This document shows positions 34,399 through 55,220 of a stretch of DNA of 64,000 nt, piece after piece. This DNA comes from a virus. Lineage: Duplodnaviria; Caudoviricetes. Position numbers and translations under genes: made by a program. Location of the stretch: the IMG/VR virus record IMGVR_UViG_3300037047_000246; one strand, 5' to 3'. A model generated the notes under the pieces. The model ran no database searches and had not been told where the DNA came from. It saw nothing but the letters and a program-made list of their open reading frames with translations. How positions within the stretch are numbered: position 1 is the first letter of the stretch; every line of letters begins with the position of its first letter.

Positions 34399-36090
34399 CT
34401 ATAGCTTTTTGAACCACAACACCTTCTCTGATTCCATCACTTTAGTCAAGCCTGCAAATTTGACCAATTCTTGCTCTGTCAAACCCATGTTGCTGGCTTG
34501 GGCATATACGGTCTTCTTATGTATGGCCTTGATCGTCACTGGATCAAGATAGTGATATGATTTGTCTGTGTTGCCTAGTTTAACCCAACCAGCTGCCGCG
34601 TATATTGTGCCTGAGTGTCCTACAGTCGGGTCACTGAAACTAGTGATGGCAATGGTTTCACGTTTTTCTTTCTTGAATGCCTTAACAAACCTGTTGATCA
34701 AATTAGAGCCAGCGTTACTGGTTTTGAATGATGGGGATATACAAAATCGTTTGAGCTCTCTCAGACTCTTGTTCGTGAGTGTGGTTCCGGATAGCCTGCT
34801 TACTTTGGCACACGTGCACTGTCTGATCGGAGAACCGAATGAGCATGCCGCCACTAGTATTCCTGACTGAGTGAATGCTCCATAGTGACAGGCATTTTTG
34901 GTGAAACCTATGTAATGGTATTGGCTGAAGAATGCGCAAGCCGCGTCGGCAGATATCGAGCTGATTGTTAGACTGTTCAGGTCGTCTGTGATTGGATCCA
35001 CTGTGATGGACAGATGTCTGCTTAGGATCGCAAAGACTCTTCCAAGGTTTATTTCATGTTCCCAAATTGATATGAGCTTGTAGTTTGTGTGCCTCTGAAC
35101 ATAAGTGGCTTTGCCTCTATCTCGTGACGTTCCAACATATCCATTGTGCTTGAAATCATGCCAAAAGTCCCCCTGACATTCTACAAGTAAATTCGCTTTG
35201 GGAATATAGAAATCGAACGAATATGGGCCCACTTCATACTGGCGTTCATATTTCGTTCCGATTCTTTCTAATGTTGATTTGACCAGTCGCTCTGTCAGTG
35301 GATCAGATAATTTGGCTTTCACTGCCGGAATGTTTACGATTGATGATACGCCATACTTTGTCCGTATCGTGTTTTTTAGTTTTATGCTTTCACATTTTTT
35401 ACATGTTACCTGTCCAGCTTGACTAACGAAATATGCTATCGTTGTTGGTTTGCGAGTCGAGCAGTGTGGACAGATATGGATTATCTTTTTGCTTGAGTGA
35501 AGAGTTAACGTTGCGGGATCGTATCCGAATTTGATCTTGGTAGCTTCTGTGTCGATCAGATGGACTAACCCACAGATCATATTTCGGTTTTTGGCGCCGT
35601 AATCTGACGCAAAGGATTTTTTGTTCACATCCGATTTTGTTGTCGCATGCAGCGAGGCAAGTCCGATGCAGTCTTGGCATGCGGCTGACTTACGCTTACT
35701 GAGCGTGTTTAAGCATGACTCATACCTTTCGTCGCAAAATTCACATATTGCAACTACTCTTTTAGCAGAGAACGGGCCTAATGAATTCGGCAGGTATCCG
35801 AATTTAGTTAGTGTTGCCTCTGAATCTATTAATTCGCTTTTGGCACGTGAGCTAGTGACCTTCAGAAAAAACTCGTGCCTATCTTCATCGGTGTTTTTCA
35901 TAGAGTACGAAGTAGATATCGAGTTGCATTTCTTGCAAGCTATTGGCACTCTCCTACGTTGCGTAGCGAATCTGTTCATGCAAAATTGGCAGACCGCAAT
36001 TACCTTTCTGTGAGATGACTGACTAAGACTGCTCGGCAAATAGCCGAACTGCAGTAACGTTGATTCAGAGTCAATCACTGAGGTTAGCAT
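34399..36090 (-). CDS. Zn-ribbon repeats + Vsr/DUF559-like nuclease + Mom-like GNAT domain
   Basis: Three ID.E.T...FGY.P..L...S.K..I..C..C repeats; FDFYIP...LLVECQGDFWH; FFSQYHYIG..ELKRFC..SFSDPTVGHSGTIYAAAGW. Markedly AT-rich and antisense to flanks. Confidence 0.8.
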   Translation of the reverse strand: MLTSVIDSESTLLQFGYLPSSLSQSSHRKVIAVCQFCMNRFATQRRRVPIACKKCNSISTSYSMKNTDEDRHEFFLKVTSSRAKSELIDSEATLTKFGYLPNSLGPFSAKRVVAICEFCDERYESCLNTLSKRKSAACQDCIGLASLHATTKSDVNKKSFASDYGAKNRNMICGLVHLIDTEATKIKFGYDPATLTLHSSKKIIHICPHCSTRKPTTIAYFVSQAGQVTCKKCESIKLKNTIRTKYGVSSIVNIPAVKAKLSDPLTERLVKSTLERIGTKYERQYEVGPYSFDFYIPKANLLVECQGDFWHDFKHNGYVGTSRDRGKATYVQRHTNYKLISIWEHEINLGRVFAILSRHLSITVDPITDDLNSLTISSISADAACAFFSQYHYIGFTKNACHYGAFTQSGILVAACSFGSPIRQCTCAKVSRLSGTTLTNKSLRELKRFCISPSFKTSNAGSNLINRFVKAFKKEKRETIAITSFSDPTVGHSGTIYAAAGWVKLGNTDKSYHYLDPVTIKAIHKKTVYAQASNMGLTEQELVKFAGLTKVMESEKVLWFKKL

Positions 36091-36478
36091 GATTTATGAA
36101 TACCATTGTGTGGCATGCGGTAAATCCCAGGATGAAGAGTGTTCGGTGGACACTTTCAAATCTTACAGGCCGGTCTGCCAAGACTGTGGGGGCTTGTGCG
36201 AATATGTGTTCAATCCATCCGGGGTGCAGTTTGTGCTGAAAGATGGTCCTAGTGGGTCATGGCCATCTAAAGGCGAACGCATAAAGAAACAGCGCGCGGC
36301 TTCCTCCGCAGCAGCCGGCAAAAGGCAAAAAGAGCGGTACAAGAATCCGTCGCTTGTTCCCAACTATCTAGGCCGAGAGACGGGAACCTGGGCCGAAGCT
36401 CAACAAGAAGCTGCAAAAGACAAGGGTCAGGAAAGCGCCGCGACGTACTCTGCACTGATCAACAAGACAAAGAGCTGA
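36089..36478 (+). CDS. FmdB-family zinc-ribbon protein
   Basis: MIYEYHCVACG...CQDCGG. Confidence 0.85.
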   Translation: MIYEYHCVACGKSQDEECSVDTFKSYRPVCQDCGGLCEYVFNPSGVQFVLKDGPSGSWPSKGERIKKQRAASSAAAGKRQKERYKNPSLVPNYLGRETGTWAEAQQEAAKDKGQESAATYSALINKTKS

Positions 36479-36609
36479 GAAGGTCCCTCCGGGGCTGCGC
36501 AGTGGCGGAGTCCGCATTCAGGACGTCCCATGGCTGCAGCCGGCTGCGGGACCTGTCGGTTTTTTATCAATCGCGTACTTGAGCTCGCCCGTGGCGCAGC
36601 TGGAAGGAA

Positions 36610-37242
36610 TTGCCGATGCGACAGTTGTCGATTCAGCGCCGCAAACCGGGGCTCGTGGACTTGCTGATCATCAGGACGGCCAACGCTGTGGCCTACAAGC
36701 TCCGGTGGTCCAACAATTTCGACGCCGCGGTCCCGGTGAATTTTCTCGAAGTGCCCCAATCCGGCTACAGGGACCCCGCGGTGTCTGATGCCGGCGACAC
36801 GACTTTGTACGGAAACAGGGTGCGCGCGGTGTTCAACCCTGCGACGTTCGGCATCCCGGACGACTCTCCGTGGTGGCTTCGGGTCTCTCCGCTCAACGCC
36901 GCAGGTGCGGAAATTCACACCACGCCGCCGCTCATGGTGGTGGCGCCCGACCCTAGCGGCTCGTATTTGCCTCAGCTCTCCGTCACCGGAGTCGCCCCGA
37001 ACGTGGTGGACCTCGCCCACGCGCTCGAGTTTCATCTGCCTCGGCAGATGAAGCATTTCAGAGTGCAAAACCTGGCCTCCATGTTCGTGGCGTTTCACCC
37101 CGGCGGGCCAGAGATGCAAGTGCCGGCGTCGCCCACGCCAAAGGACCTGAGCTGGGGATCCACGAGCTCCTCCATTTTCGTTCGAGGAGACGGCGCCGCT
37201 GTACCATTCTCCATGATGTTCGCGCCGGCATACACGATCTGA
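36610..37242 (+). CDS. Hypothetical beta-rich (probably virion) protein
   Basis: Biased codons; within the structural cluster. Confidence 0.7.
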   Translation: MPMRQLSIQRRKPGLVDLLIIRTANAVAYKLRWSNNFDAAVPVNFLEVPQSGYRDPAVSDAGDTTLYGNRVRAVFNPATFGIPDDSPWWLRVSPLNAAGAEIHTTPPLMVVAPDPSGSYLPQLSVTGVAPNVVDLAHALEFHLPRQMKHFRVQNLASMFVAFHPGGPEMQVPASPTPKDLSWGSTSSSIFVRGDGAAVPFSMMFAPAYTI

Positions 37243-37263
37243 AGCTGAGCGCGGGAGACCAAC

Positions 37264-37770
37264 GTGCCGAACGACAGCACAGAATCTCAGCAGGCGCCCT
37301 CGACGAGGACCCGGTCCAGGGCTGTGGAGCTGCAAATTGCGGAGATTGAGCTGGAGACAGCCAAAGTGGAGAAGCTGCACGCGCAGCGGCAGGCCGAGCT
37401 TCAGATAGAGCAGCAGCGCATGCAGCTCAGGCAGCAGCGAGTGCAGTTGGCCATCACGTTCGTCGGCCTTTTGGCAGCTGCCGCCGCCTTGTACAGCAGC
37501 TGGTCCACTAGCCGCAAAAGCGACGAGAGGTACGAAAAGACCAGCCGCGCTGTTGTCGCCATTGGCTCGGCGCAAGTCGAGCAGTACAAGGCGGTGGAAG
37601 ACCTGAGAGGCTACACGGCCGAGGTGGCGAGCGCTGCCCCGGTCTTGATTATTGTCCCGGCTTCGGCGTCTGCTGCGCAGCCCAGAGTCGCCGCGTCCGT
37701 GTCGAGAACGCCCGTTCGCAGACCTCCTCCGGCGGCACCAGCTCCGCCGCCAGATGTGCCGACCTTTTAG
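37264..37770 (+). CDS. Coiled-coil, single-transmembrane protein
   Basis: Q/E-rich helix, TM segment LAITFVGLLAAAAALYSSW, Pro-rich tail. Confidence 0.65.
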   Translation: MPNDSTESQQAPSTRTRSRAVELQIAEIELETAKVEKLHAQRQAELQIEQQRMQLRQQRVQLAITFVGLLAAAAALYSSWSTSRKSDERYEKTSRAVVAIGSAQVEQYKAVEDLRGYTAEVASAAPVLIIVPASASAAQPRVAASVSRTPVRRPPPAAPAPPPDVPTF

Positions 37771-38167
37771 GGCGCTGTGGCAAGTTTGCCCACAATCTGC
37801 AGCAGTCCGTACCAGGTCTCGGTCTGGACAAACTCCGGTGCGTGCGTGACTGCCGCCCCGACCTCGCACACGGTGCATTTTCCGTGCAGGCCGGTCGGCG
37901 ACCCTCTGCGCCTCGTCTTGTGGCAAGCCAGATACGAAGCTGCAGGCTTGTCCAGGAGCTTGTCCAAGGCGCCTATGGCAGAGCGCAGCCCTGCAGACTT
38001 CGTCCGGAGCTCCAAACCCGCGTGGTGGGCGCACCGGCAAAGGTGCCCCGACAGGCGCCCCAAGCTCAGTTTGGCGGACAGGGTCCGCGCGCAGTGACCG
38101 GTCTGCAGTCTGCAGCCTAGACAATGATGCGTTTTTTATTCGGCGTGCTACGTCAGGAGAACTGCAC

Positions 38168-39295
38168 ATGTCCATCAATCTCATCCGAGTTATCAACCAG
38201 CAGACGACTCATCGTTCAATTCTGTTGGACAAATTGGACGACGGCCAAGCGAACACCGAAGGGTACGCGCACAAGAATGTGAAGCAGAAGGTGTACGTGC
38301 CTTTTGCCAATCCGCTCAATCCGGCCGTGCGCGGCTACACTGACCTCGTGCTGACCGACCGCGTTCTTCTGTCGTCTGACGTCGGCGGCACGATCAGCGG
38401 CCTCGTGGCTGCCGGGCGCGTCCTCGCCTTCGCTTTCAGCTCCGCTCTGAAGGCGACGCCCACGATTTCTTCGGTGGCCCACGTCGCTGGCGAAACAACC
38501 ATCACGGGCACGACGTACCTGTCGGTTGTGCCGGACATCACCTACGTGGTGTTCAGGACTCCGGGCGGAGTGACGCAGAAGGTGCCGTCTGCGGCGTTCG
38601 CGTTCTTCAACGCCACACAGATCAGGGTGCAAGACGCGGCTGTCACCATCGGCGTCCCGACCGAAGGCTGGACTGTGACTGTGGAAGCGAACTGCGCGCT
38701 CAGCAACGTGCACCCGATCGGCAATGTGGCGACGATCACCACGGCGATCCTTGAAGTCAACGGAGACGTCACGATTTCCGGCGCGAACTTCACCTCCACT
38801 CCGCCGCTCACTTCGTCTGTCGAAGTCATCGGACTCGGCCCCGTGCCTCCTCTGACTCAGGCGGCAATTCTGGCTGGCGGCGGCGTCTTCACCGACGTGT
38901 CCATCGTCATCCCGGCTGCCATGATTGCCGGCGCCGCGGAAACCACCACCATGGTGCAGATTGTGGCAGAAGGCTTCACCTCTGTGGCCACCGCCTTGAT
39001 CATGACTCCTGTGCTGACTTCGGCGCAGAAGGACGTGCCTATGGCCGGAGACTTGACCATCACCGGATCGAGCTTCCTGTCGACTGCGCCCGAGGTGTCC
39101 AGCGTGGTCATCACTGGCACTGGAGCGATCACGCTCACGTCCGCGGAAATCATTGGCGGCGGCGGCACGTTCCTCGACGCTTCGATCGTCATCCCGGCCG
39201 CTCTGTTCACCAACGGTCCAATCGCTGCGGCCACTTCGTCGGCCCAAGTCTTGGCAGACGGCCTGTCGTCGGCAGTGGTTGCCGTCATCCCGTAG
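38168..39295 (+). CDS. Virion protein with three IPT/TIG-like (Ig-like) repeats
   Basis: AGGAG RBS; repeats P.I.S.....G..TITG..F.S..P. Confidence 0.7.
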   Translation: MSINLIRVINQQTTHRSILLDKLDDGQANTEGYAHKNVKQKVYVPFANPLNPAVRGYTDLVLTDRVLLSSDVGGTISGLVAAGRVLAFAFSSALKATPTISSVAHVAGETTITGTTYLSVVPDITYVVFRTPGGVTQKVPSAAFAFFNATQIRVQDAAVTIGVPTEGWTVTVEANCALSNVHPIGNVATITTAILEVNGDVTISGANFTSTPPLTSSVEVIGLGPVPPLTQAAILAGGGVFTDVSIVIPAAMIAGAAETTTMVQIVAEGFTSVATALIMTPVLTSAQKDVPMAGDLTITGSSFLSTAPEVSSVVITGTGAITLTSAEIIGGGGTFLDASIVIPAALFTNGPIAAATSSAQVLADGLSSAVVAVIP

Positions 39296-39674
39296 CGCAC
39301 TCTTCGCACAGCGCCAAGCATCCCGCCGGAAACCCATCTCGCCTGAGCTGGGCGCACCGGCGCGCTCCCAGCTTGCGGCCTGACTCGTCGGCCGGGACTG
39401 CGGCCGGGCGAACGCCGCACAGACAGCATATTTTTCCAGCGCAGTATGCAGCGGCCGCTTCGCTCGCAGCGCGCCGCCTGTACGCGGCCTGGCGCCCTGC
39501 CGACGACGCTTTCTGCCGCTGCATGATCCGAGCGGAGTTGCGCTCGTAGTACTGCCTCTTGCACACAGCGCACCGGTACTGCATAAGCTTCATCCCGGCG
39601 CAGTCTGCAGTTTCAATTTCGTAGAAAATTTGCATTCCGTGCCAGCGACAGCTTCTGACTACGATGTTTTTCAC
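39285..39674 (-). CDS. Small Cys-rich hypothetical protein
   Basis: GTG start with GGGAGG RBS; CRWHG...RCAVC. Confidence 0.45.
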   Translation of the reverse strand: MKNIVVRSCRWHGMQIFYEIETADCAGMKLMQYRCAVCKRQYYERNSARIMQRQKASSAGRQAAYRRRAASEAAAAYCAGKICCLCGVRPAAVPADESGRKLGARRCAQLRRDGFPAGCLALCEECATG

Positions 39675-39773
39675 GCATGCACCTCCCCATTAACGCGTTA
39701 TTTTCCTTGATTGAGTCTGTTATGCATATTTACATATGAACCACTGAATACTCATCGATAAGGCAGGTACACA

Positions 39774-40583: not shown

Positions 40584-40616
40584 TTCCGCGAAGATTGTTA
40601 CTGGTAGAGTTCGTTC

Positions 40617-40652
40617 ATGAGCTCTGCTAAAACTATCCGCTTCATCATCTGA
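40617..40652 (+). CDS. Possible leaderless uORF MSSAKTIRFII (UGA stop) upstream of the release factor
   Basis: TGgTAGAGT extended -10 ends 6 nt before the ATG. Read-through would stop at TGA 40692-40694, overlapping the RF start ATG. Confidence 0.35.
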   Translation: MSSAKTIRFII

Positions 40653-40690
40653 CATAAGCTCGTGCTGAGCTTCCAATGTAATTTCCTTGC

Positions 40691-41351: not shown

Positions 41352-41400
41352 TGCCTTTATGGGACCATTCCAGCATGAGCTGGGGGTGTGGAATCCTCGG

Positions 41401-43146
41401 CTAAGGGTTCCACACCCAGCGCTTCTTTCCCAAATCCCAGATTTTGCTGTAGCCCTGGCTTTCGCGCAGTTCAGTTTCGGTGTGCGTGCTTTCGCGTTCT
41501 TGTCCGCGTTTGCGCAACCCCGATTTGTTGTACCTTTTGCCAGCTTTTGTCCAGTAATAGCTTTGCGGCACGCAACCGTCGTTTTTGAACCCTAGCCGGT
41601 CGTACACTCGTCCGGTAAACAGCCTGTTGTCAGAGAACGAGACTATGGACGCCGGACGAGCGTCCGCCACAAACCGGCGCAGCAGTCTCGACCACACTCC
41701 ATGGACTTTGTAGTCAGGGTCCGATGCCATTCGAATGAGTTCCCACGGGTGAGCTGACTGCCTAGTCGGTTTTGCAAACGAGCAGCAAGCAACCATTTTC
41801 CCGTTTGCAAAGGCTCCGTAGCTGGCGGCAGACCTACATCGGCCAAGATAGTGGAAAGACTCGTAGAACGCATTGGCGCTGGAGTTGGGTACTCGCTCTA
41901 TCTTTGCTTCGGAAGCTCTCCACGCGTGCGCCGGACGGCTCTTCATCAGCCTATTTCGGACGATTTGCTTGATTTGCTGCTGGCGCAGCAGCCATTCGTC
42001 TTCGTACACTGCCATTACGCCGAGCCCGCGTTGCACGGCGTTCTGGTACTTGGTCCAATCGCGCTGTTTGGATCCAGGAAGGGAATGCCACTTCGTGCCC
42101 TGGAACTCCAGCACGATTGCATGCGTCTCGACGAACATGTCGTACGACAGCTTTCCTATTTTATGCTCCAGACGCACGTCCAATCCCAAGCTTCGCACGA
42201 ATTCGGCCAGTTCTAGTTGGCCGCTGGACGTGCGATTGGTGCTACATCCGCATGTCAGCGCTGCACCTGCTCTTATGTGGTCCCAGCGAGGCGCATACTC
42301 TTTGCCGCACGCGCCGCATAAAGCCAAAACAGGACTGGACGTTCGCGTAACTTTGTCCAGGATGGCGAAAGGGCCCGCCGGCAAGTCGCTTGGGCTGATC
42401 GGGGGCTTCATGGCCCGAAGTTGTTCCCTGTGTTTGGCGAACCAGCTGTCCACGCCGCTTCGGCATTTGCCGCAACACACTGTGCGACCTCGCGTCACAT
42501 TTTGCACGACAGCCTGAAAGACGCCTCCGCAATCGCACTGCCACTCCAGTTTTTTGTTCGATCGCAACGCCAGCTCCGTTGCAAAACGCAGTCGCAATCG
42601 TCCAAACTTTGTGTTTGCCCAAAACTCGGCAGGCATCGTGTTGCATTTGCCGCACGAAGTGCGGTGGCCTCGCGTCACCTCAACCATGGTCGCCTGCGTG
42701 TCTTTGCCGCAGTCGCACACCCACCAAACGCGTTTGCTGGACGCCCGAAGCACGCTCTCCGGGAATTTCATTCGGAGCTTGCCGAATTTGGACTGCTCCA
42801 TGGTGCTGGAGTCCACTTCGTTGCATCTGCCGCAAGACTTGGCGCGTCCGTTGGCTACCCGAACGATGGGAAGCATGGCGGTTTTGCCGCAGTCGCACAG
42901 CCATTCGACCACCTTGTTGGATCCATTCTTGTGGTCCTGAGGGTGCGCCATGGATAGGTGGCCGTATCGGGTAGTCTCCCAATGCGACTGCGGCAGCAGG
43001 TTGCACTGGCCGCACGACTTGATTTTTCCATTGAACACGCTTGACCACGGACGTAGTACGCCTTTGCGTCCGCAAGAGCAGTCGTACCTGGTGAGCTGCC
43101 CTGACCATCTGGTCTTTACGGTTTCGCCTGCAGACAGCGTTAGCAT
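41401..43146 (-). CDS. FG.L...W.CDCG zinc-finger repeats + PD-(D/E)xK nuclease + Mom-like GNAT domain
   Basis: Four CDCG/CSCG repeats; YDMFV...VLEFQGTKWH; FYESFHYLG..WELIRMAS..SFSDNRLFTGRVYDRLGF. Confidence 0.8.
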   Translation of the reverse strand: MLTLSAGETVKTRWSGQLTRYDCSCGRKGVLRPWSSVFNGKIKSCGQCNLLPQSHWETTRYGHLSMAHPQDHKNGSNKVVEWLCDCGKTAMLPIVRVANGRAKSCGRCNEVDSSTMEQSKFGKLRMKFPESVLRASSKRVWWVCDCGKDTQATMVEVTRGHRTSCGKCNTMPAEFWANTKFGRLRLRFATELALRSNKKLEWQCDCGGVFQAVVQNVTRGRTVCCGKCRSGVDSWFAKHREQLRAMKPPISPSDLPAGPFAILDKVTRTSSPVLALCGACGKEYAPRWDHIRAGAALTCGCSTNRTSSGQLELAEFVRSLGLDVRLEHKIGKLSYDMFVETHAIVLEFQGTKWHSLPGSKQRDWTKYQNAVQRGLGVMAVYEDEWLLRQQQIKQIVRNRLMKSRPAHAWRASEAKIERVPNSSANAFYESFHYLGRCRSAASYGAFANGKMVACCSFAKPTRQSAHPWELIRMASDPDYKVHGVWSRLLRRFVADARPASIVSFSDNRLFTGRVYDRLGFKNDGCVPQSYYWTKAGKRYNKSGLRKRGQERESTHTETELRESQGYSKIWDLGKKRWVWNP

Positions 43147-43218
43147 GCTCGATCTTTGGTAGTGTTTTCTTGCAGCCACGTCCGGGAAACAAAGAGCTGA
43201 GGCATACGCGGAAAATAC

Positions 43219-43461
43219 ATGAACACTAATACAGAAAACGAGTTTGAGACGCACGACATTTACCTGGCTGCCTTTCTGGCTGTGTCGTCATGCACCCTGC
43301 TGCGCCGGCGCAAGCAAGCCAACCGCGTCTACTTCATCTTCACCAACCCTGCCGGTCCAGTCCAAGACCTCCGGGAAGCCTTCTTTTCGGGGCAAGCTAA
43401 AGTGTCCGCTCATGAGTACGCACAGCGCATCGTGGCGTTTAAGCAGTTGTGTTACGAGTGA
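43219..43461 (+). CDS. DUF5659-like small protein
   Basis: FETHDIYLAAFL...RVYFIF pattern. Confidence 0.7.
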   Translation: MNTNTENEFETHDIYLAAFLAVSSCTLLRRRKQANRVYFIFTNPAGPVQDLREAFFSGQAKVSAHEYAQRIVAFKQLCYE

Positions 43462-43527
43462 TCGAAGGCAAGACGCTTGCGCGAGTCAGAGGCGTAGTTG
43501 CGTCCCCTCTGAGCGCCAGGCGCTCGG

Positions 43528-43770: not shown

Positions 43771-43805
43771 GAGAGAGTTTACACTTTCGATTGGCCGTCT
43801 GGAGC

Positions 43806-44171
43806 ATGGCAAGGGTAATCGTAGCCGGTCGGTGCTCGTTCTTTCAGCCAGACTTCTTTGAAGCCGGCCAGCGCAAAACAGGAGTCACCTGGGCTGAACT
43901 GACTTTGCGAGCTTTTTCCAACGGCGCTCTGCTCGCTTGGCCCCTTGCAAACGGCGCCGGCGTGCCGGACTCTTCCGTGTCTTCAGGCGCTGTGTACTTC
44001 GACGAGGTGGTCGGATGCGCCGGATTTTACCGCCTCAGGTTCTTTCCGGACAGGGTTGGATACTGGCGCCTGGTTCTGCAGCACCCGACAGCCGGCGAAT
44101 GCTCGCTGGAGTTTGACTCTGTGCCTGCTCAACCGTCTTCATCCGGGCTGACGGCCCAGTTTGGACCATGA
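43806..44171 (+). CDS. Virion protein with a beta-sandwich module
   Basis: GGAG RBS; FY.L.F...G.W module like those in 44168 and 52642. Confidence 0.6.
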   Translation: MARVIVAGRCSFFQPDFFEAGQRKTGVTWAELTLRAFSNGALLAWPLANGAGVPDSSVSSGAVYFDEVVGCAGFYRLRFFPDRVGYWRLVLQHPTAGECSLEFDSVPAQPSSSGLTAQFGP

Positions 44172-45388
44172 CTGCTTTTTTGCGACGCACTGTCCCCTCA
44201 GAGCTGCTGCTGACGCTCCGAAATGACCTCGGCCAAGCGCAGGACGCGGACGAAGTCGTATGGACTGTGCTTTCGTCCAGCGATGGCCATCCGGCGTCAG
44301 GCGTCCGAATGCGGGCCGTCCGCACCGGAGTGGGGTCTTATGCGGCAACTTGGTATGCAGACTGCCCAACAGGCCCTTACGAAATCGCTTGGGAGTACAA
44401 GCAAGACCCGGGCGACGCATGGTCCAAGGCTACAGATCATTTTTTCGTGATAGATCCGGACCAGATCGCTCGTGCGGGTCGCGTCGTCGGCCTTCCCGCT
44501 CCGGGCACGCTGGCGTTCGAGTCGGGTTCGCTTGTCGAAGGGCAAGACGGCCTTGTTTTGCGCTTGTTGCAAGACGGTGTGCCTGTGGACGCGTTCGACG
44601 TGTCCTGGACCATCCTTGACTCGGCTGGACGCCAGGTCACCGCCAAAACCGCGGCCGCCAGGGCAGCCGTCGGCGTCTACTGCGTCGTTTGGCATGCGGC
44701 CGGAGCCACGAGCTACATGGTGTTGTGGGAATTCAGGCAGTCTGCAAACTCCCCGCTGCAATCGACCAAACAGGACTTTTGCGTCGTCAGCCGGTCGTTG
44801 CCGTACGCAGTGGTGGTGAAGCAGTATTACCCGACGTTCGCCAGAAGCTCTGGACCTAGCAGAGCCTTCGCACATGTGGCCTGCCCCGCCAGCTGCTCTA
44901 CGCACACGTCCTCGTGCGGCTCGTGGACGTCGTTTGGCCCGTGCGTCTCTTGGCAGCCTAGCTGCGCCGTTTCCAGCGACTGCGTGTGCAGGTGCGACGC
45001 CGCGCAACCAGTTGCGAGGTCTGTACACCTGCCCCGCACTGTGCTGCCCAGCGGCGGAGAGTATACGGACCAGGCAAAGTTTATCATTCCCGCTGGCATC
45101 AGTCGAGTCGTCTTTTGGGTAGAATATGAGCGGGGGTCTGAAGATGGGCAAGCCATAGTCAGGCTCATGTGGAGCAACGGCGTAGACGAGGTTCACGACA
45201 CCAGATGTCAAGACGGGACTTTGCTTGCAGAAGACATGCTTGTGCCGTTTCCTGAATCTGGCGGCGTTGCGTCTTTCTCGGTGTCTGCTGACGTCATAGG
45301 TGGTATGACAGGAGTTAGACTGCTGGTTGCTGAGTGCGGAGATGCTAGCAACCCTGGTATAGCGGAGATTTATGTGACAGCTAGTTAG
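44168..45388 (+). CDS. Virion protein with two repeated beta-sandwich modules and a Cys-rich linker
   Basis: YAATW..GPYEIAWEY and VYCVVW..SYMVLWEF repeats. Confidence 0.65.
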   Translation: MTAFLRRTVPSELLLTLRNDLGQAQDADEVVWTVLSSSDGHPASGVRMRAVRTGVGSYAATWYADCPTGPYEIAWEYKQDPGDAWSKATDHFFVIDPDQIARAGRVVGLPAPGTLAFESGSLVEGQDGLVLRLLQDGVPVDAFDVSWTILDSAGRQVTAKTAAARAAVGVYCVVWHAAGATSYMVLWEFRQSANSPLQSTKQDFCVVSRSLPYAVVVKQYYPTFARSSGPSRAFAHVACPASCSTHTSSCGSWTSFGPCVSWQPSCAVSSDCVCRCDAAQPVARSVHLPRTVLPSGGEYTDQAKFIIPAGISRVVFWVEYERGSEDGQAIVRLMWSNGVDEVHDTRCQDGTLLAEDMLVPFPESGGVASFSVSADVIGGMTGVRLLVAECGDASNPGIAEIYVTAS

Positions 45389-45395
45389 GTCGCCA

Positions 45396-45857: not shown

Positions 45858-45927
45858 AACAGACCTGACTCTGTTGCTGAATTGAATCATTATTTGGTAG
45901 GATGTCTCACGAGTTTTTATTGAAGCC

Positions 45928-47496: not shown

Positions 47497-47507
47497 GAGA
47501 AGTAGTC

Positions 47508-49007: not shown

Positions 49008-49017
49008 GGTAGGGCAC

Positions 49018-51189
49018 ATGAGTGTCCTCGCCCCGGTCATCGATCACCTAAACCCCGTCACGAGGTACGTGCACCTCCGGGCGGGGTGCAGGGCGTATCA
49101 CCCGGTGGACGACATCTACGCCGAGATCAGAAACCTGCGCCGCACCGACGAAACGCTGCGCAGGTACCCGGTGCAGTGCGTGGCGGCAGGCAACGTGCCC
49201 AAGGGCGGCGGCAAGTTCACGCCGCGGTACATCGTGCTTCAGCACGGCTGGCGGATCGTGCCCGAAGACGTGTCGCACGTCCTGTCGGTCACGGGCGAGC
49301 AGCTCACGGCCGAGGGCGGGGCGGGACCCGACTGCTTCGACCTGTCCACTATCTCAGCCAGCTCGAAGGTGATCATCCAGTACGAGCCCCCGGCGGCCGA
49401 GGTGATCGTGATCAGCAGCACCCCTGGCGGCGACGCTCCCACCGTGCAGGAGATCGACGCCCAGCTCAGCGCAACCCACGGAGCGGGCGCCTGGGGCGGG
49501 ACGGCTAACGTCGACTACCCGGCCGTGGCCGATGCGGTCCGCACCAACTTGACCACCGAGCTGGGGCGCATCGACGCGGCCGTCAGCTCACGTGCCGCCC
49601 CTGGCGCCGCCATGGCGCTCACCGTAGCGGAGCGGGCGGCAATCGACACGGCGCTGTCCGCCGTTCACGGGTCTGGCGTCTGGGTGGACAGCGGTGCCGC
49701 GCCAGATGCCGGCCAGGTTGCTTCTGCGGTACGAGCCGAGCTGGCCACAGAACTTGGGCGCGTGGACGCAGCCGTGTCCACCAGAAGCTCCCACAGCGCT
49801 GCGGACGTCAACGTGGCCGTGACCAACGCGCACGGGGCCGGGTCGTGGGTGGACACGGGAGCCGCCCCCACTGCCAGCCAGGTGGCGACGGCCGTCCGTT
49901 CGGAGCTCACCACGGAGCTGGGGCGGGTGGACGCCGCCGTCTCCTCCCGCAGCAGCCACAGCGCGTCCGATGCAGCTGCTGCCGTGCGGTCCAACCTGTC
50001 GACCGAGCTGGGGCGGATGGATGCGGCCGTCTCGACGCGCAGCGCGCACAGCCCAGCTGACGCTGCGTCTGCCGTCAGAATAAATCTCGCTGCAGAGCTG
50101 GGGCGCATCGACGCTGCCGTTAGCACTAGAAGCTCGCATGCGCCCGCGGATGTGGACGCCGCGCTGGTTGTGTCGCACGGAGCAGGGTCATGGGTGGACA
50201 GCGGCGCTGCGCCTGCAGCTGACCAAGTTGCGCAAGCAGTGCGGTCCAATTTGGTCACAGAGCTTGCGCGACTGGACGCTGCTGTGAGCACCAGAAGTTC
50301 GCACACGGCAGCAGGCGGGGCATCTGCCGTGCGGTCCGAACTGGCGGCGGAGCTTGCGCGACTGGACGCTGCTGTGAGCACCAGAAGTTCGCACACAGCT
50401 CTGGATGTGGACGCTGCACTAGCAGCGACCCATGGCGCCGGCTCTTGGGTCGACAGCGGCGCACCCCCGTCAGTCGCTCAGACGGCGGCTGGGGTCAGGT
50501 CTGAGCTTGCGTTAGAGCTCGGCAGGGTGGACGCAGCCGTGAGCACCAGAAGTTCGCACACTGCGGCGGACGCTGCGCTCGCAGTCAGAACAAATCTCGC
50601 TGCAGAGCTAAGCAGAATGGACGCAGCTGTCAGTTCGCGCGCCGCTCCCGGAGACGCCATGGCGCTCACCGCGAACGAGAGGACTGCCCTGGACGCTGCC
50701 CTGTCCGCGTCCCACGGGTCGGACTCGTGGGAGGGAGCGGACGCTCTGAGCGCGCAAGACGTGGCGCAAGCGGTGCGGGCGGAAATTGCGGCTGAGTTGG
50801 GGCGCGTGGACGTTGCTGTATCTACCCGGAGCTCGCATATGCCGGCGGATGTGGACGCAGCCTTGTCGGTTTCTCACGGCGCAGGGGCTTGGGGCGACGC
50901 TTCTTCAGATCCGGCAGCCCTGGCTGCAGAGCTCGACAGCGTGCTCAGCGCGTCTCACGGAGCCGGTGCTTGGGGCGCGTCAGTAGACGCGCCCACCCCG
51001 GAGCAAGTGTCGGCTGCCGTATGGAGCGAGCCTGATTCGAATGCTGGGGCGGGCACGATGGGGGCTCGCATGCAGCGATTGGATGCGCTTGTGAGTTCAA
51101 GAGCAACGGCCGGGCAGGGCTTGACTCCTGAGCAGGCGGCGGCTCTGGACGCGGCCAAGAAACTAATCATGCTTGTGTTTGCCAAGTAG
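49018..51189 (+). CDS. Fibre-like protein with about 10 tandem AVRxELxxELGRxDAAVSTRSSH repeats
   Basis: Repeats visible directly in the translation. Confidence 0.75.
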   Translation: MSVLAPVIDHLNPVTRYVHLRAGCRAYHPVDDIYAEIRNLRRTDETLRRYPVQCVAAGNVPKGGGKFTPRYIVLQHGWRIVPEDVSHVLSVTGEQLTAEGGAGPDCFDLSTISASSKVIIQYEPPAAEVIVISSTPGGDAPTVQEIDAQLSATHGAGAWGGTANVDYPAVADAVRTNLTTELGRIDAAVSSRAAPGAAMALTVAERAAIDTALSAVHGSGVWVDSGAAPDAGQVASAVRAELATELGRVDAAVSTRSSHSAADVNVAVTNAHGAGSWVDTGAAPTASQVATAVRSELTTELGRVDAAVSSRSSHSASDAAAAVRSNLSTELGRMDAAVSTRSAHSPADAASAVRINLAAELGRIDAAVSTRSSHAPADVDAALVVSHGAGSWVDSGAAPAADQVAQAVRSNLVTELARLDAAVSTRSSHTAAGGASAVRSELAAELARLDAAVSTRSSHTALDVDAALAATHGAGSWVDSGAPPSVAQTAAGVRSELALELGRVDAAVSTRSSHTAADAALAVRTNLAAELSRMDAAVSSRAAPGDAMALTANERTALDAALSASHGSDSWEGADALSAQDVAQAVRAEIAAELGRVDVAVSTRSSHMPADVDAALSVSHGAGAWGDASSDPAALAAELDSVLSASHGAGAWGASVDAPTPEQVSAAVWSEPDSNAGAGTMGARMQRLDALVSSRATAGQGLTPEQAAALDAAKKLIMLVFAK
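49528..50850 (+). repeat. Modular coding tandem-repeat array, including an exact 47-nt duplication (50260-50306 and 50350-50396)
   Basis: gagcttgcgcgactggacgctgctgtgagcaccagaagttcgcacac occurs twice. Confidence 0.85.
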
Positions 51190-51203
51190 GAGCGCATCCC
51201 GGG

Positions 51204-51446
51204 TCACGATAGCATCACAGCCTGCACTACCCACTCGTCGAGGCCATCGCGCACCGGGACGTAGTTGTCTGCGCAAAATCCACGTGGATTGTGGTCTATC
51301 AGCCACTCGACGCCCTGCTGAAGATGCTTCGGGCATAGCGGCTTGAGCACCCCGTCGTATTTGCGTCGGAACATGTACGCAGCATCGCCGCAGTGGGCGC
51401 ATTTCGTTTCGCCGGCCGACTTGAATGAGCCGGAGGCAGGATTCAT
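51204..51446 (-). CDS. Small Zn-binding hypothetical protein
   Basis: CAHC..LCPKH; C-terminus LDEWVVQAVMLS. Confidence 0.65.
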   Translation of the reverse strand: MNPASGSFKSAGETKCAHCGDAAYMFRRKYDGVLKPLCPKHLQQGVEWLIDHNPRGFCADNYVPVRDGLDEWVVQAVMLS

Positions 51447-52117
51447 CGGATCTGCCCGGACTCCATGCCGTCGAACACAATCTTCACCCAGTCCGGGTGC
51501 TCAGTGCTGCGGGTCGGGTGGTCTCTGCGCGGAGACCCCAGCCGCTTGAGCACTACGCCGTGAATGAAGCCGGACTTCGAATCGGTCGTGTCGCGATGCG
51601 CCTTGGCCACCCGAAGCGCTTCTTCGAGGTTCTCGGGGGTCGCCGCTTGCTGCTCCACTGCGCGGACGTTCTCTGTTCCTTCGCCAAGGAGCTCCACTAG
51701 CCTGTCGTGGCGTTTCTCTAGCCTCTCCTGGCTCACGTCTTCGGACCCGGCCCGAATGACGTCCCAGAACGTCAGGTTGCAGACGACCCCCTTGTCGTGT
51801 CGCCACGACCCCCTCTTGGTGGGGGTCCAAATCTCGCCATCCAGCACAGTCCCAGCCGGCAGGTTCAGAGCGGCAACCTGGTCTTGCAGGTTGTCTGGCA
51901 TGGCAATGGGTTTGCGCTCGCGCGTCCACAGGGCGGCCGAGCCCTTGGTGTCGACGATCAGCAGGCACCGGAAACCATCAAATTTGTGCTCGAGGACGTA
52001 GCCTTCGAACCCGCCTTTCATGAAGAGGGCCATGCTGATTCGGATTGGCTTGAACGGATAAAGCCACCATTTCATGGCGCTTGGTACTTGGTTGGGTTCT
52101 TGATTTACGTTAGACAC
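51443..52117 (-). CDS. ATP-dependent ligase, adenylation domain only
   Basis: EHKFDG (motif I), VLDGEI (III), FWDV (IIIa), HGVVLK (IV variant), WVKI (V); no OB-fold. Confidence 0.8.
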   Translation of the reverse strand: MSNVNQEPNQVPSAMKWWLYPFKPIRISMALFMKGGFEGYVLEHKFDGFRCLLIVDTKGSAALWTRERKPIAMPDNLQDQVAALNLPAGTVLDGEIWTPTKRGSWRHDKGVVCNLTFWDVIRAGSEDVSQERLEKRHDRLVELLGEGTENVRAVEQQAATPENLEEALRVAKAHRDTTDSKSGFIHGVVLKRLGSPRRDHPTRSTEHPDWVKIVFDGMESGQIR

Positions 52118-52122
52118 TCCGC

Positions 52123-52599
52123 CTATGTCTGCCTATGGGGCGTGGCTGTGAACTTGTGCTTCTCCGGCACAGCGACTCGCTTCATGACTTCGTACAGCAT
52201 TTGCCGCGCTTCTTGCCGCCTGCGCGAAATCTCTTCGCGATGTGTTTTTCTGCTAAGTATGGTTTTTTGTCGGCCGCTCGTACGCTTCCGCTCCAGGTAT
52301 GCGGTCATCTTGGCGGATTTGTAGTATTCTGCCATACATGACTTGCACTTTTGATCTCGTCCATCGGACGACGTCGGGTGCTTGCGGAATTGTGAAACAG
52401 GCAGGCGTTTGCCGCACCCTCGACAGTCTTTGGTGGCGAGAGTTTGTTTCGGCTTCAATTTGCGTGCTTCATACCGGTTTTTTGCAATCTGTTTCGCACA
52501 ATCTGGGCACTCTGTGCGTCTGCGGCCAACACCTCGGCTCGCGAACTGTGTTTCTGGGAAAGATTCCTTGCATACTATGCAAGTTTTGTGAACTATCAT
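52123..52599 (-). CDS. Double zinc-finger protein resembling a homing-endonuclease N-terminus without a nuclease domain
   Basis: CIVC..CPDC and CRGC..CKSC; AT-rich. Confidence 0.55.
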   Translation of the reverse strand: MIVHKTCIVCKESFPETQFASRGVGRRRTECPDCAKQIAKNRYEARKLKPKQTLATKDCRGCGKRLPVSQFRKHPTSSDGRDQKCKSCMAEYYKSAKMTAYLERKRTSGRQKTILSRKTHREEISRRRQEARQMLYEVMKRVAVPEKHKFTATPHRQT

Positions 52600-52641
52600 T
52601 TGTTCCCAAAATACAATAAACTTACTGTAGAGAAGATCTGC

Positions 52642-53541
52642 ATGAGCGTCGTTTTCAAACGTGGTCAGGAAATGACCCGCGCCGAGGGATTGAATGTCTT
52701 CCTGAAGAAGCGGGACGGCACCCCGAAGAACGCGGCTGAAATCGCGTACGACATTTACGATTTCACCACAGGCGCCGAGATTCTTCTTCCTCCCTCTAGC
52801 CGCGTGCCGCAAAATCCGGCTGTGGGCGAGTACTTCGCGGCTTTTCGCATTCCGCCAGACGCCAACATCGGCAAATATCGCATTCGTTGGCGCTTCCGCG
52901 AATACCTGAATTCGAAGCAGGCCGAGATCATGCAAGAGTTCGCCATCGTCGGCGACTCGACTCAGGTCATCACCGCCCCTGGTGTGACGCCGACCGAATA
53001 TGACCTCATCCGCGGTCTTCGCATCATGCTGCGTGACGCGAATCCAGACAGAAATTATCATTTTGTCCCACCGGCGGGCGAGGAGTCCACAGATCAGTTC
53101 ACCAGGGTGTTCGGATATCTGTGGCTTGACGATGAGCTCAAAGAGTTTTTGCGCGTCTCCTTGGACTCTGTGAACATGTACGCTCCGCAGACGTTCTACG
53201 ACACTCTGGACCAGCTCATGCAGCAGCACCGCAATTGGCGGACCTTGCTGTTCACCGGGGCGATGGTGCACTCCATCAACGCCCTGGCGCTGAACTGGGT
53301 GGCAGATGAGTTTGACTACTCAATCGGTGGTGTTTCGCTCAATCTAGAAAAGTCGTCAAAGTATCAGTCGATGGCGAACGATGCGCAGACCAGATTCACC
53401 GACATGGTCACAGCAGCTAAAGAAACGGTCAAAGTGATTAGGGGCCTCAAGCAGTCTCGCTACGGCATGGGTATTCGCTCATCGTTCGGCCCGAGTGTAG
53501 GACGCGGTGCTCTGACGCCAAGACGGTTCCTTGGTATATGA
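52642..53541 (+). CDS. Putative head-tail connector / neck protein
   Basis: N-terminal beta module plus helical C-terminus (LRIMLRD..P; DYSIGGVSL); biased codons. Confidence 0.55.
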   Translation: MSVVFKRGQEMTRAEGLNVFLKKRDGTPKNAAEIAYDIYDFTTGAEILLPPSSRVPQNPAVGEYFAAFRIPPDANIGKYRIRWRFREYLNSKQAEIMQEFAIVGDSTQVITAPGVTPTEYDLIRGLRIMLRDANPDRNYHFVPPAGEESTDQFTRVFGYLWLDDELKEFLRVSLDSVNMYAPQTFYDTLDQLMQQHRNWRTLLFTGAMVHSINALALNWVADEFDYSIGGVSLNLEKSSKYQSMANDAQTRFTDMVTAAKETVKVIRGLKQSRYGMGIRSSFGPSVGRGALTPRRFLGI

Positions 53542-53594
53542 TTTTCTCCACGACCCAGTTGTGCCCCAACTAAGAACATACTAGACTTCTTTGC

Positions 53595-55220
53595 ATGACC
53601 CAGCAGATCTGCAAAGCATGCGGGCAATCGAAGGAGCTAGAGGGCGGGTTCTTTAGGAACTCAGTGAAGCTTAGCGGCTACGATGCTAAATGCAAAGAAT
53701 GCCGCGGCGCCAAAGCCAAGGCATATAGAGCAGCGCATGCAGAAGAGATCGCCAAACATCGACAAGAATACTACACTGATAACAGGGAAGTTATCCTGGC
53801 CAACAAGTGTTCATACTATCGGGATCACGTGGGAGAACTTGCGCGCCGTAAGTCAGAATACTGGCAAAGCAACAAGGATGAGATCAAAAAGCGTACATCT
53901 GAGTGGAGAGGGCGCAACAAAGAACTGCTGGCTCTGCGAGCAAAGCAATATAGGGACGCCATACTGAAATCGGCCATCGCCGTCTTGGGAGGAAAGTGTG
54001 CTGTGTGCGGCGAGGTAGAGCCTGAATTTCTGACTGTGGACCACATAAACAACGACGGCGCCTCTGAGAGGCGTTTGGGCGCCGTCAGTTGGAAGCGGCT
54101 GATTCTGGACGGGACTGCTGACCCTTCCAGATACCAGGTGTTGTGTCACAATTGCAACCTCGGGAAATATCGCCTAGACCCCGTCCATCACTTCAAGGAT
54201 GGAGCTGCTGTAGGTAAAGTACGCTCCTGTCCTACATGCGGCGTTGACAAAGATGAGTCTGAGTTCCGGGTTGGTCATACGCGACGGTGCCTGGAATGTG
54301 CCAGGCCATACCAGATTGAGCGCCGCAAAGCCATGATCCACGCACTCGGCGGGGCGTGCGTGTGCTGCGGGCTGGATGAATGGCACAAGCTCGTCGTGGA
54401 TCATGTCAATAATGACGGATTTGCAGCCAGAGCTTTGGGGGCGCGCAGCGGCGTGGACCTCTTGGCTGCCATAACGTGCGGCAAACTGAAGCGAGCTGAT
54501 CACCAGTTGATGTGTTGGAACTGCAACCACAGCAAGCATCGTGGTGGCGGATTGTGCGTACATCAGCGCAACGGTGTGTCGCTGCTTGGGGGAGTCACGC
54601 CGACCATCAGGAACACGCAAAACACGACGCCTATCGATGCGACCGATTTTCTGTTGTGGAGTGTACGCACAGGTAAGGCCGATCTCGGCGTCGCAAAGCC
54701 ATTTTTGGACGCTCACCACTATGCCGGGTTCGGTCGCGCCTCCAGCATTGTTTACGGTGCATGGGCGGATGAACTGCTGATAGGCATTGCGAAATTCGCT
54801 TCGCCGGTGCGCCAGGGCGTTGCCAAGTCTATTGGCCTGAGCGATTCGCAGGTGCTTGAGCTCGATCGATTCTGCATACACCCTGCATACCATGCCAAGA
54901 ATTTCGCGTCATACTTCATGGCAAAAGCTATCAAGCTGGTTGCTGCCAACAAGCCAGGCGTTCTGAAGCTGGTGTCGTTTGCCGATCCTCGATTCGGGCA
55001 TGTCGGCACTGTTTATGAGGCTTCCAACTGGCAAAAGCTGGGCGAGACGGCACGCAGCTATTACTACGAGGACGCGCAAGGTCAAGAAATCAACAAGAAA
55101 ACCCTGTATGATTTCGCGAAGCGCCGCAAGCTAACAGAGCGCCAATGTGCCGAAGCGCTAGGATATGAGAAGGTACGTACCCCTCCTAAGATCAAGTTCG
55201 TTTATATCATCAAGAAATAG
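53595..55220 (+). CDS. Zn finger + two EndoVII-type HNH domains + Mom-like GNAT domain
   Basis: GGKCAVCG..LTVDHINNDG..QVLCHNCN; GGACVCCG..VVDHVNNDG..LMCWNCN; FLDAHHYAG..LELDRFC..SFADPRFGHVGTVYEASNW. Confidence 0.85.
   Translation: MTQQICKACGQSKELEGGFFRNSVKLSGYDAKCKECRGAKAKAYRAAHAEEIAKHRQEYYTDNREVILANKCSYYRDHVGELARRKSEYWQSNKDEIKKRTSEWRGRNKELLALRAKQYRDAILKSAIAVLGGKCAVCGEVEPEFLTVDHINNDGASERRLGAVSWKRLILDGTADPSRYQVLCHNCNLGKYRLDPVHHFKDGAAVGKVRSCPTCGVDKDESEFRVGHTRRCLECARPYQIERRKAMIHALGGACVCCGLDEWHKLVVDHVNNDGFAARALGARSGVDLLAAITCGKLKRADHQLMCWNCNHSKHRGGGLCVHQRNGVSLLGGVTPTIRNTQNTTPIDATDFLLWSVRTGKADLGVAKPFLDAHHYAGFGRASSIVYGAWADELLIGIAKFASPVRQGVAKSIGLSDSQVLELDRFCIHPAYHAKNFASYFMAKAIKLVAANKPGVLKLVSFADPRFGHVGTVYEASNWQKLGETARSYYYEDAQGQEINKKTLYDFAKRRKLTERQCAEALGYEKVRTPPKIKFVYIIKK

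Follow-up and report, generated by a model that had tools for sequence, protein, structure and literature searches.

Nuclease–Mom-family fusion genes as candidate mobile homing elements in the genome of an uncultured phage

The window analysed here, a stretch of 64,000 nucleotides from an uncultured phage (Duplodnaviria; Caudoviricetes; IMG/VR record IMGVR_UViG_3300037047_000246), holds three genes, P0001, P0002 and P0003, whose products combine a DNA-reading head and a nuclease with a C-terminal domain of about 180 residues common to all three. A further ORF had been counted as a fourth fusion of nuclease and modifier in a preliminary description of the window. The features are the following, with residues of P0002 domains in the numbering of its longer, GTG-initiated frame:

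17482..19146, plus strand: ORF with an EndoVII-like N-terminus and a methyltransferase-like C-terminus (PHROG, Pfam)
34399..36090, minus strand: P0001, 563 aa, class B nuclease–Mom fusion, ORF intact
35392..35991, minus strand: P0001 head, aa 34-233, with three treble-clef Zn units of the CxxC...CxxC type (regex; Pfam DUF4379, E=3e-7)
35047..35304, minus strand: P0001 Vsr-like (EDxHD) nuclease, aa 263-348 (weak Pfam MTES_1575, DUF559 and Vsr; D...VECQGDFWH motif; joint profile matching 3r3p and Vsr)
34402..34983, minus strand: P0001 predicted Mom-family GNAT, aa 370-563 (Pfam Mom, 75.1 bits)
41401..43146, minus strand: P0002, 581 aa from ATG, class A nuclease–Mom fusion (matched from end to end by PHROG 559 and 3339)
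42244..43080, minus strand: P0002 head, aa 59-337, with five Zn-finger units of the form CxCG...CGxC that recur about every 60 aa (regex; Pfam DUF4379, E=5e-12)
41935..42234, minus strand: P0002 Vsr-like (EDxHD) nuclease, aa 341-440 (class A motifs; profile against PDB 3r3p, E=2.8e-11)
41404..41934, minus strand: P0002 predicted Mom-family GNAT, aa 441-617 (AF2 model; Foldseek to 8bv8 Mom, E=8e-7)
53595..55220, plus strand: P0003, 541 aa, twin-HNH–Mom fusion, directly downstream of a highly conserved gene (52633-53541)
53610..54167, plus strand: P0003 Zn ribbon and first EndoVII-type HNH module, aa 6-191 (phrog_2255 in two stretches, phrog_1035, phrog_2633; DH...CHNCN motif)
54228..54536, plus strand: P0003 Zn ribbon and second HNH module, aa 212-314 (PHROG matches, HNH motif, Cys-pair regex)
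54645..55217, plus strand: P0003 predicted Mom-family GNAT, aa 351-541 (Pfam Mom, 90.2 bits; phmmer to 8bv8_A, E=2.6e-8)

All three frames are intact as first described, the start of P0002 at 43146 being an internal ATG, residue 37 of a frame of 617 aa that opens with GTG at 43254. P0001 and P0002 are indeed antisense to co-oriented conserved neighbours. P0001 lies between two such genes, with its stop codon 1 nt from the stop of the upstream gene and its ATG overlapping that of the downstream gene as CATG, and it is the gene that had been singled out as strongly AT-rich (43.5% GC against 60% in the flanks). The ORF at 17482-19146 matches phrog_1035 at its N-terminus (aa 16-98, E=1e-10) and Pfam Cons_hypoth95 at its C-terminus (aa 381-498, 29.5 bits), in agreement with its description as an HNH–methyltransferase fusion; in G001, the closest complete relative and our reference for the comparison of empty sites, the methyltransferase part alone is matched, at 33% identity.

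The three proteins had been described as carrying three different nucleases, each with Zn-finger repeats of its own. The latter holds, with three, five and two CxxC...CxxC units outside the HNH cores of P0001, P0002 and P0003, respectively, and four to six Zn-finger units in each of the class A paralogs. The former holds for the twin HNH of P0003 but not for P0001 and P0002, whose nucleases are homologous and Vsr-like (EDxHD) with the common motif D...[LVI]E.xG..WH...RD; among the three proteins the nuclease folds number two and the head architectures three. By sequence, the nuclease of P0001, P0002 and their paralogs matches I-Bth0305I best in the PDB (3r3p, E=2.8e-11 with the joint profile), with the catalytic Asp and His aligned, followed by Vsr (1cw0, 5e-5). 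I-Bth0305I is the prototype of the EDxHD (Vsr-like) family, in which Hef-type enzymes have also been placed (PMC3239194); unlike the proteins described here it is intron-encoded, lacks a Mom domain and binds DNA through NUMOD and HTH motifs instead of Zn fingers. The core D...E.xG..WH...RD is kept in 11 of 11 Vsr-type copies, and in the nine class A proteins E, D, E.xG..WHS, RD and EDEW are invariant, the upstream E being so in class A only. In P0003 the HNH core is matched by phrog_2255 in two stretches (E=1e-23) and has two DH[IV]NNDG...C.NCN motifs. Pfam HNH (PF01844) gives no match on P0003 itself; a full-length homolog with 51% identity carries PF01844 in a precomputed table, and there are at least 55 full-length homologs of P0003 in metagenomes.

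The shared C-terminal domain had been likened to phage Mu Mom from the motifs HY.G, EL.R and SF[AS]D...G.[IV]Y, all of which occur in the three proteins, although SF[AS]D is followed by a spacing of 5-6 residues and not 4. Comparison of profiles and structures with Mom, proposed at that stage, points the same way. P0001 and P0003 score well above the curated cut-off of 27.1 bits for Pfam Mom (PF25680), and the P0003 domain has Mu Mom (8bv8) as its sole phmmer match in the PDB. P0002 scores 13.3 bits, below the cut-off, and passes Acetyltransf_1; it was placed in the Mom family through a profile of its paralogs and through structure. An AF2 model of its residues 330-617 (pLDDT 89.5, pTM 0.83) has 8bv8_A and 8bv8_B as the top two Foldseek matches in the PDB (E=8e-7, TM by target 0.53-0.57), ahead of generic GNATs.

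A search of the whole 362,524-bp genome with a profile of the C-terminal domain extends the set beyond the three intact genes first described to 13 nuclease–Mom genes. Their Mom domains share a mean pairwise identity of 39% (range 21-65%), and 16-23% with Mu Mom. Twelve alignment columns are invariant among the 13 paralogs, and five of these correspond to H58, Y59, R111, D149 and Y159 of Mu Mom, residues that matter by mutagenesis; S124 and R151, which Mu Mom also needs for activity, are kept in 12 and 9 of the 13, respectively. All seven positions are kept in P0002 and P0003, and six in P0001 (H58, Y59, R111, S124, D149 and Y159). Mu Mom also has an essential HTH-like insertion between its last beta strands. 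A possible counterpart here is a helical stretch of about the same length that aligns to Mom residues 175-209 and forms three short helices between strands in the model. Mu Mom and these domains are alike in predicted fold and active-site residues, and may be alike in the insertion between the last strands. Sequence, predicted fold and active-site residues all support a Mom-like assignment, and the putative Mom-family GNAT looks catalytically competent.

The distribution of these genes among relatives supports the proposal that they are mobile single genes set between conserved genes in the manner of homing endonucleases. Five complete related genomes have 13 copies, one copy plus a remnant, none, none and six. 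At least eight of the 13 sites show a clean absence of the gene in G001, the flanking orthologs lying 10-400 bp apart; one site holds a remnant and one a head-swapped gene. Presence and absence thus vary at fixed sites in otherwise syntenic genomes: the flanking orthologs of P0001 are adjacent in G001, and at the site of P0002 only a 42-aa C-terminal remnant is found, 81% identical. The neighbours of the 13 genes are better conserved than the average gene (median best-flank identity 74% against 65%, p about 0.009), and g122425, like P0001, has an atypical GC content, at 47.7%. The 13 genes behave as mobile single-gene insertions.

The third site adds a different kind of change. At the locus orthologous to that of P0003, G001 codes for a protein whose Mom domain is 61% identical to that of P0003 and is its sister in the Mom-domain tree, yet stands behind an unrelated DUF7487 and Vsr-type head. 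This supports the suggestion in the preliminary description that nuclease heads are swappable. With one site empty, one holding a remnant and one with a swapped head in G001, both mobility and head swapping are supported. Of the 150 cluster representatives that score best, 143 likewise have the Mom-family domain at the C-terminal end of a longer protein.

Neither the domain nor this type of gene is new, as had been recognized for the former. Jumbo-phage fusions of Mom and endoDNase have been published, together with the cut-and-protect hypothesis (Iyer, Anantharaman, Krishnan, Burroughs, Aravind 2021 Viruses 13:63; PMC7824862), and phage PA5oct has five Mom-REase fusion genes (PMC7824862). Those fusions are alike in joining a Mom-family GNAT to a REase-fold nuclease, in occurring in jumbo phages and in being present in several copies per genome. 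That paper names REase-fold partners only, and the twin-HNH partner of P0003 is absent there; going beyond that account, from sequence alone, are the 13 copies in one genome, the empty and remnant sites and the head swap at an orthologous locus. We found no published description of the twin-HNH head or of a head swap in situ.

Phages of Campylobacter, Klebsiella, Vibrio and Dickeya code for full-length relatives that, as anticipated, carry the annotation of Hef-like homing endonucleases and that keep most of the Mom residues. P0002 aligns with the Hef-like genes of Campylobacter phages over 93% of its length, C-terminal domain included, at about 24% identity; such matches occur at 9-11 places per genome in Campylobacter phages and in 354 phage records. 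The systems named include Hef of phage U5, which cleaves nrdB (PMC2988022), Campylobacter phages CPX and NCTC12673, and the F-Lim genes of Dickeya phage LIMEstone1. The Campylobacter phage genes are intergenic, free-standing and adjoin conserved structural genes. The CPX protein keeps H58, R111, S124, D149, R151 and Y159; with Pfam Mom, the Campylobacter Hef-like protein gives no match at E<=0.01. P0003 is unlike the Hef-like proteins in that HNH modules replace the Vsr-like domain.

Type IIG/IIL enzymes such as MmeI also unite a nuclease, a modifier and a shared specificity module in one polypeptide; they are cellular defence genes built on a SAM-dependent methyltransferase and a TRD. By contrast, the proteins described here have a predicted GNAT as modifier and a Zn-finger array as reader, and their genes behave as mobile elements; Pfam finds no methyltransferase domain in P0001, P0002 or P0003. 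The resemblance is an analogy of logic only.

We consider these genes best explained as free-standing mobile elements of the homing-endonuclease type, combining a reading head, a nuclease and a Mom-family GNAT with a proposed role in self-protection, and put the probability of this reading at about 0.5. During co-infection the head, a Zn-finger array or Zn ribbons, would bind at a specific site, within a conserved gene or next to it, in a relative lacking the element. The nuclease would then break the DNA and repair would copy the element into the break, a course suggested by the nuclease family and by the pattern of presence and absence. Brought to that site by the same head, the Mom domain would acylate the N6 of an adenine there with an aminoacyl-tRNA donor, much as Mu Mom, a Gly-tRNA(Gly)-dependent N6-adenine modifying GNAT, does with Gly-tRNA(Gly) (PMC13219725). 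In the carrier genome the site, together with its hemi-modified daughters, may then resist the nuclease, a single-chain version of restriction-modification logic. That the Mom domain modifies DNA and protects its carrier has already been proposed (PMC7824862). The modules may recombine at the junction of head and Mom domain, which is how we propose that one Mom lineage came to stand behind different nucleases.

Several observations count against this reading. R151 is replaced by T in P0001 and both other class B copies and by M in g122425. Mu Mom is a stand-alone homodimer with a loose sequence preference that needs W48 to dimerize, whereas in the present proteins it is joined to a nuclease and a DNA-reading head, and W48 is kept in none of the 13 copies, the aligned position being D, G, S, T, A or R. 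The scores of the Pfam Mom model also count against it, being too low on P0002 and absent for the Campylobacter Hef-like protein. To our knowledge, ordinary homing endonucleases manage without a modifier. In a mixed infection the same enzyme would meet both genomes, so that protection could be allele-specific only if modification is pre-existing or if hemi-modification matters. The lineage also carries a gene of the PurA/PurZ family, and if its DNA has 2-aminoadenine in place of adenine, the substrate of these Mom domains would differ from that of Mu.

Rather than being selfish, these elements may serve the phage as weapons, an alternative to which we give perhaps half the credence of homing. 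The nuclease would strike host DNA or superinfecting phages while momylation shields the phage's own genome, possibly against host restriction, and the large number of copies would let more sequences be covered. Such a role has been predicted in print for jumbo-phage Mom-REase fusions such as the five genes of PA5oct (PMC7824862); it fits the conservation of both the Mom and the nuclease active sites, and thirteen different heads imply thirteen specificities. Yet two complete relatives have none of these genes and the closest has one, so they are dispensable for the lineage, and insertion of single genes beside conserved genes, with a remnant and empty sites, is the signature of homing elements. 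Modification confined to particular sites by Zn-finger arrays would, besides, give little general protection from restriction.

Other readings concern the Mom domain itself. It is rather unlikely to be a non-protective helper of the nuclease, which would flip bases or clamp DNA, or modify cut or target DNA and so bias repair, even though Mu Mom binds double-stranded DNA, is modelled to flip its target adenine and needs its HTH-like insertion for activity, the fusions have a helical insertion of similar length, and the domain lies C-terminal to the nuclease in every fusion protein examined. Pure binding would leave near-invariant Ser, Asp, Arg, His and Tyr unexplained in paralogs only 21-65% identical. 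We regard it as very improbable that the GNAT acts on tRNA or protein in the manner of TacT-type toxins, delivered with the nuclease. Mom is structurally close to the tRNA-binding GNATs FemX and TacT, and the remaining structural matches are ordinary N-acetyltransferases; Mom itself, however, is the best match by both sequence and structure, most copies retain the DNA-facing R111 and R151 and apparently the Mom-specific insertion, and a domain joined to sequence-specific DNA-binding heads is more likely to have DNA as its substrate.

What is new here is the twin-HNH variant, the head swap in situ and the map of gain and loss. The chemistry of Mom was solved only recently, as the transfer of glycine from charged tRNA to adenine in DNA, and a Zn-finger array joined to a cutter and a putative writer would be a natural analogue of engineered zinc-finger nucleases. 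If the Mom domain of these homing-type genes gives site-specific self-immunity, this would explain how free-standing homing endonucleases can occupy intergenic sites with their target kept, and the aminoacyl mark would join the known labels by which self and non-self DNA are told apart. More speculatively, and in our estimate doubtful, Mom may be a stable, locus-resident immunity part around which nuclease and reading heads are exchanged, each of the 13 proteins placing an aminoacyl-type mark on adenine at a sequence specified by its Zn fingers. If so, nature would have provided in these genes a set of DNA hypermodifiers, programmable and site-specific, with matching cutters, and offer homing endonucleases a way to invade sites that their own insertion leaves intact; should 2-aminoadenine replace adenine in this lineage, as it may, the mark would be placed on a non-canonical base.

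Three intact open frames in the window encode nucleases joined to a common Mom-like C-terminal domain, so that the fusion genes of the preliminary description are real:

34399-36090, minus strand: P0001, 563 aa, intact open frame
41401-43146, minus strand: P0002, 581 aa from its ATG, intact open frame, with a longer frame from a GTG at 43254
53595-55220, plus strand: P0003, 541 aa, intact open frame

The count of three was too low. The window corresponds to positions 137348-201347, read on the minus strand, of a complete virus record of 362,524 bp that has terminal repeats and a GC content of 57%, and a profile of the C-terminal domain, run against all open reading frames of this genome, finds 13 nuclease–Mom genes of 509-704 aa each and no stand-alone Mom domain. 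By their heads, the N-terminal DNA-reading parts, they fall into four groups:

Group 1: eight P0002-like genes, with 4-6 zinc fingers and a Vsr-like nuclease
Group 2: three P0001-like genes
Group 3: P0003
Group 4: one other gene with twin HNH modules, of another HNH subtype

A Mom domain is joined to each of the 11 strong Vsr-like domains of the genome. Foreign composition is seen in P0001 (GC 43.5%) and in the second HNH copy (47.7%).

The assignment of the C-terminal domain to the Mom family is supported by profile and structure comparison. Against a cut-off of 27.1 bits, the Pfam Mom model (PF25680) gives P0001 75 bits and P0003 90 bits; P0002, at 13 bits, lies below this cut-off but over that of the general GNAT model, and PHROG 1384 (“Mom-like DNA modification protein”) matches all three. 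In a phmmer search of the PDB, the sole entry matched by the P0003 domain is 8BV8, the crystal structure of phage Mu Mom (E=2.6e-8). A model of the weakest case, P0002 residues 330-617, built with eight paralogs as alignment (pLDDT 89.5, pTM 0.83), places chains A and B of 8BV8 at the top of a Foldseek search, before every ordinary acetyltransferase.

Mu Mom moves glycine from Gly-tRNA(Gly) onto N6 of adenine in double-stranded DNA; H58, Y59, R111, S124, D149, R151 and Y159 are important for this enzyme, and its HTH-like insertion is essential (2026 paper, PMC13219725). In an alignment with Mu Mom, all seven of these residues are present in P0002 and P0003 and six in P0001, where threonine replaces R151, a position substituted in four of the 13 copies. 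The Mu Mom dimer residue W48 is not retained in the copies. The 13 domains are diverse, with a mean pairwise identity of 39% and a minimum of 21%, and have only 12 invariant columns. Five of these 12 are functionally proven Mom residues, which argues that selection acts on the catalysis of the domain and not on folding or DNA binding alone.

The nuclease parts had been described as three different nucleases; they comprise two folds. P0001 and P0002 have in common a D...[LVI]E.xG..WH...RD core, and a Vsr-like nuclease profile built from 13 proteins matches the catalytic domain of the homing endonuclease I-Bth0305I (3R3P, E=2.8e-11), followed by Vsr (1CW0, 1VSR) and a DUF559 protein. This homologous domain, which rules out three separate folds, belongs to the EDxHD family, where Taylor et al. 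also put the Hef-type phage endonucleases (PMC3239194). The nuclease part of P0003 consists of two zinc-ribbon-plus-HNH modules of the T4 EndoVII type. The heads themselves are distinct, as had been noted, with zinc units that differ in type and number: P0001 has three CxxC...CxxC units, P0002 has five CxCG...CGxC fingers that recur every ~60 aa, and in P0003 each HNH is preceded by one ribbon.

Relatives of this genome could be obtained only via the volactin gene. Cultured phages gave no megablast match to 8 kb of the window, and viral contigs scanned with single proteins of two neighbouring genes yielded no relatives. The comparison covers four complete related genomes and one incomplete record. 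The closest relative, G001, was fetched whole (376,674 bp) and its gene order compared; the median ortholog identity between the two genomes is 56%. One frame of the window, 44168-45388 on the plus strand (406 aa), gives no synteny information, since a search of 5.8 billion proteins finds no homolog of it at E<=1e-5; against the closest relative it gives only a partial 41% match.

Empty-site comparison in these relatives supports the proposal that the genes are mobile. Mom-domain genes number one plus a remnant of ~42 aa in the closest relative and 0, 0 and 6 in the other complete relatives, giving a range of 0-13 copies, and the incomplete record has none. The P0001 site is empty in the closest relative, where the flanking orthologs (63% and 65% identical) are directly adjacent; P0001 takes up that spacer in the reverse orientation, with its stop 1 nt from the stop of the upstream gene and its ATG overlapping that of the downstream gene. 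At the P0002 site the closest relative retains the C-terminal ~42 aa of a P0002-type gene, 81% identical (L040:2926-3051, equal to G001:358925-359050, inside a 122-aa open frame and syntenic with window 41401-43146), which is a decayed copy. At least eight of the 13 sites are cleanly empty there, with gaps of 10-400 bp, and the flanking genes are better conserved than average (median best-flank identity 74% vs 65% for random adjacent pairs, p ~0.009). Taken together, the copy numbers, the empty and remnant sites, the conserved flanks and the foreign GC content are the pattern of free-standing homing endonuclease genes, with invasion, decay and loss.

The proposal of swappable nuclease heads is directly supported at the P0003 locus. 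The gene immediately upstream of P0003 is 87-90% identical in the closest relative, where the P0003 position is occupied by a 627-aa gene with a Mom domain 61% identical to that of P0003 over 174 residues. Its N-terminal part, DUF7487 repeats and a Vsr-like nuclease, is unrelated to that of P0003, and the similarity between the two proteins starts where the Mom domain starts. A third genome has a twin-HNH–Mom gene (38% identical) at this site, and two others are without such a gene. A maximum-likelihood tree of 20 Mom domains groups the Vsr-headed protein with P0003 as its sister (support 96/94), within a clade otherwise HNH-headed; on this tree the head type must have changed at least twice.

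Selfish endonucleases of several classes have colonised the genome heavily, and the window also holds the following nuclease genes:

3-2129, 2757-5651 and 10380-14420, plus strand: three large genes with intein (Hint) and LAGLIDADG homing-endonuclease domains
17482-19146, plus strand: EndoVII-like N-terminus and methyltransferase-like C-terminus, just after a gene 95% identical in the closest relative
31067-31666, minus strand: free-standing EndoVII-type HNH gene of 199 aa, matching phrog_1035 at E=1e-20, in a stretch of low GC (48%)
~52123-52620, minus strand: small free-standing EndoVII-type HNH gene, flanked by a ligase-like gene and the conserved gene 52633-53541

For 17482-19146 the closest relative has a match to the methyltransferase part only, at 33% identity, and the HNH gene at 31067-31666 is missing from the syntenic position there. 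The minus-strand frame 52123-53271 (382 aa) was rejected as a nuclease gene, since its residues 1-220 are the antisense shadow of the conserved plus-strand gene 52633-53541. The conserved 224-aa protein of 51443-52117 (minus strand) has an ATP-dependent DNA ligase/nucleotidyltransferase domain (29.7 bits, cut-off 26.2) and is found in ten related loci. Adjoining P0002, 40806-41351 (plus strand) encodes a 181-aa RF-1/PCRF-domain protein resembling peptidyl-tRNA hydrolase, for which the closest relative has no match at the corresponding position. The 153-aa stand-alone protein of 26948-27409 (plus strand) has a weak Vsr-like profile match (E=2.6e-5) and is the only Vsr-like domain of the genome without a Mom domain; the closest relative carries an ortholog at 64% identity, and the gene appears to belong to the core.

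The interpretation given in the preliminary description holds up for the most part, but most of it is already in print. The “Hef-like homing endonuclease” genes of Campylobacter phages align with P0002 over 93% of its length, at 9-11 places per Campylobacter phage genome and in 354 phage records overall. One of them, the Hef-like protein of Campylobacter phage CPX, retains six of the seven key Mom residues; the Pfam Mom model has no match on it, and the kinship of its C-terminal domain rests on tblastn and residue alignments. The Hef of phage U5, which cuts nrdB, has experimental support as a homing endonuclease (PMC2988022), and one phage with five such Mom–nuclease enzymes was described by Iyer et al. 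(PMC7824862). The Mom-domain profile finds 4,102 cluster representatives at E<=1e-10, and 143 of the best 150 have the domain at the C-terminal end of a longer protein. The new elements are the twin-HNH head and the head swap in situ: metagenomes hold at least 55 full-length relatives of the P0003 type of twin-HNH–Mom protein, all of them unnamed, and a literature search found no description of this architecture.

The main rival to a selfish element is a phage weapon against host or competitors. Iyer et al. proposed in this sense that the phage is shielded by momylation and that the nuclease is directed at host or superinfecting DNA (PMC7824862), and the two readings differ mostly in the beneficiary. 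The selfish reading is favoured because two complete relatives are without these genes. These same two relatives, and the linkage of each copy to a sequence-specific head, make a genome-wide anti-restriction role as in Mu Mom unlikely. A PurA/PurZ-family gene is present, by family match, in all five genomes and here (G000:C1:249203-250210, outside the window) directly abuts g250358, one of the 13 nuclease–Mom genes; if the DNA holds 2-aminoadenine, the Mom substrate differs from plain adenine. The genes are modular and mobile, have intact catalytic motifs in both enzymatic domains and exchange modules. In a selfish element of this kind the head would steer cutter and writer alike to one site, where the mark would block the cutter.
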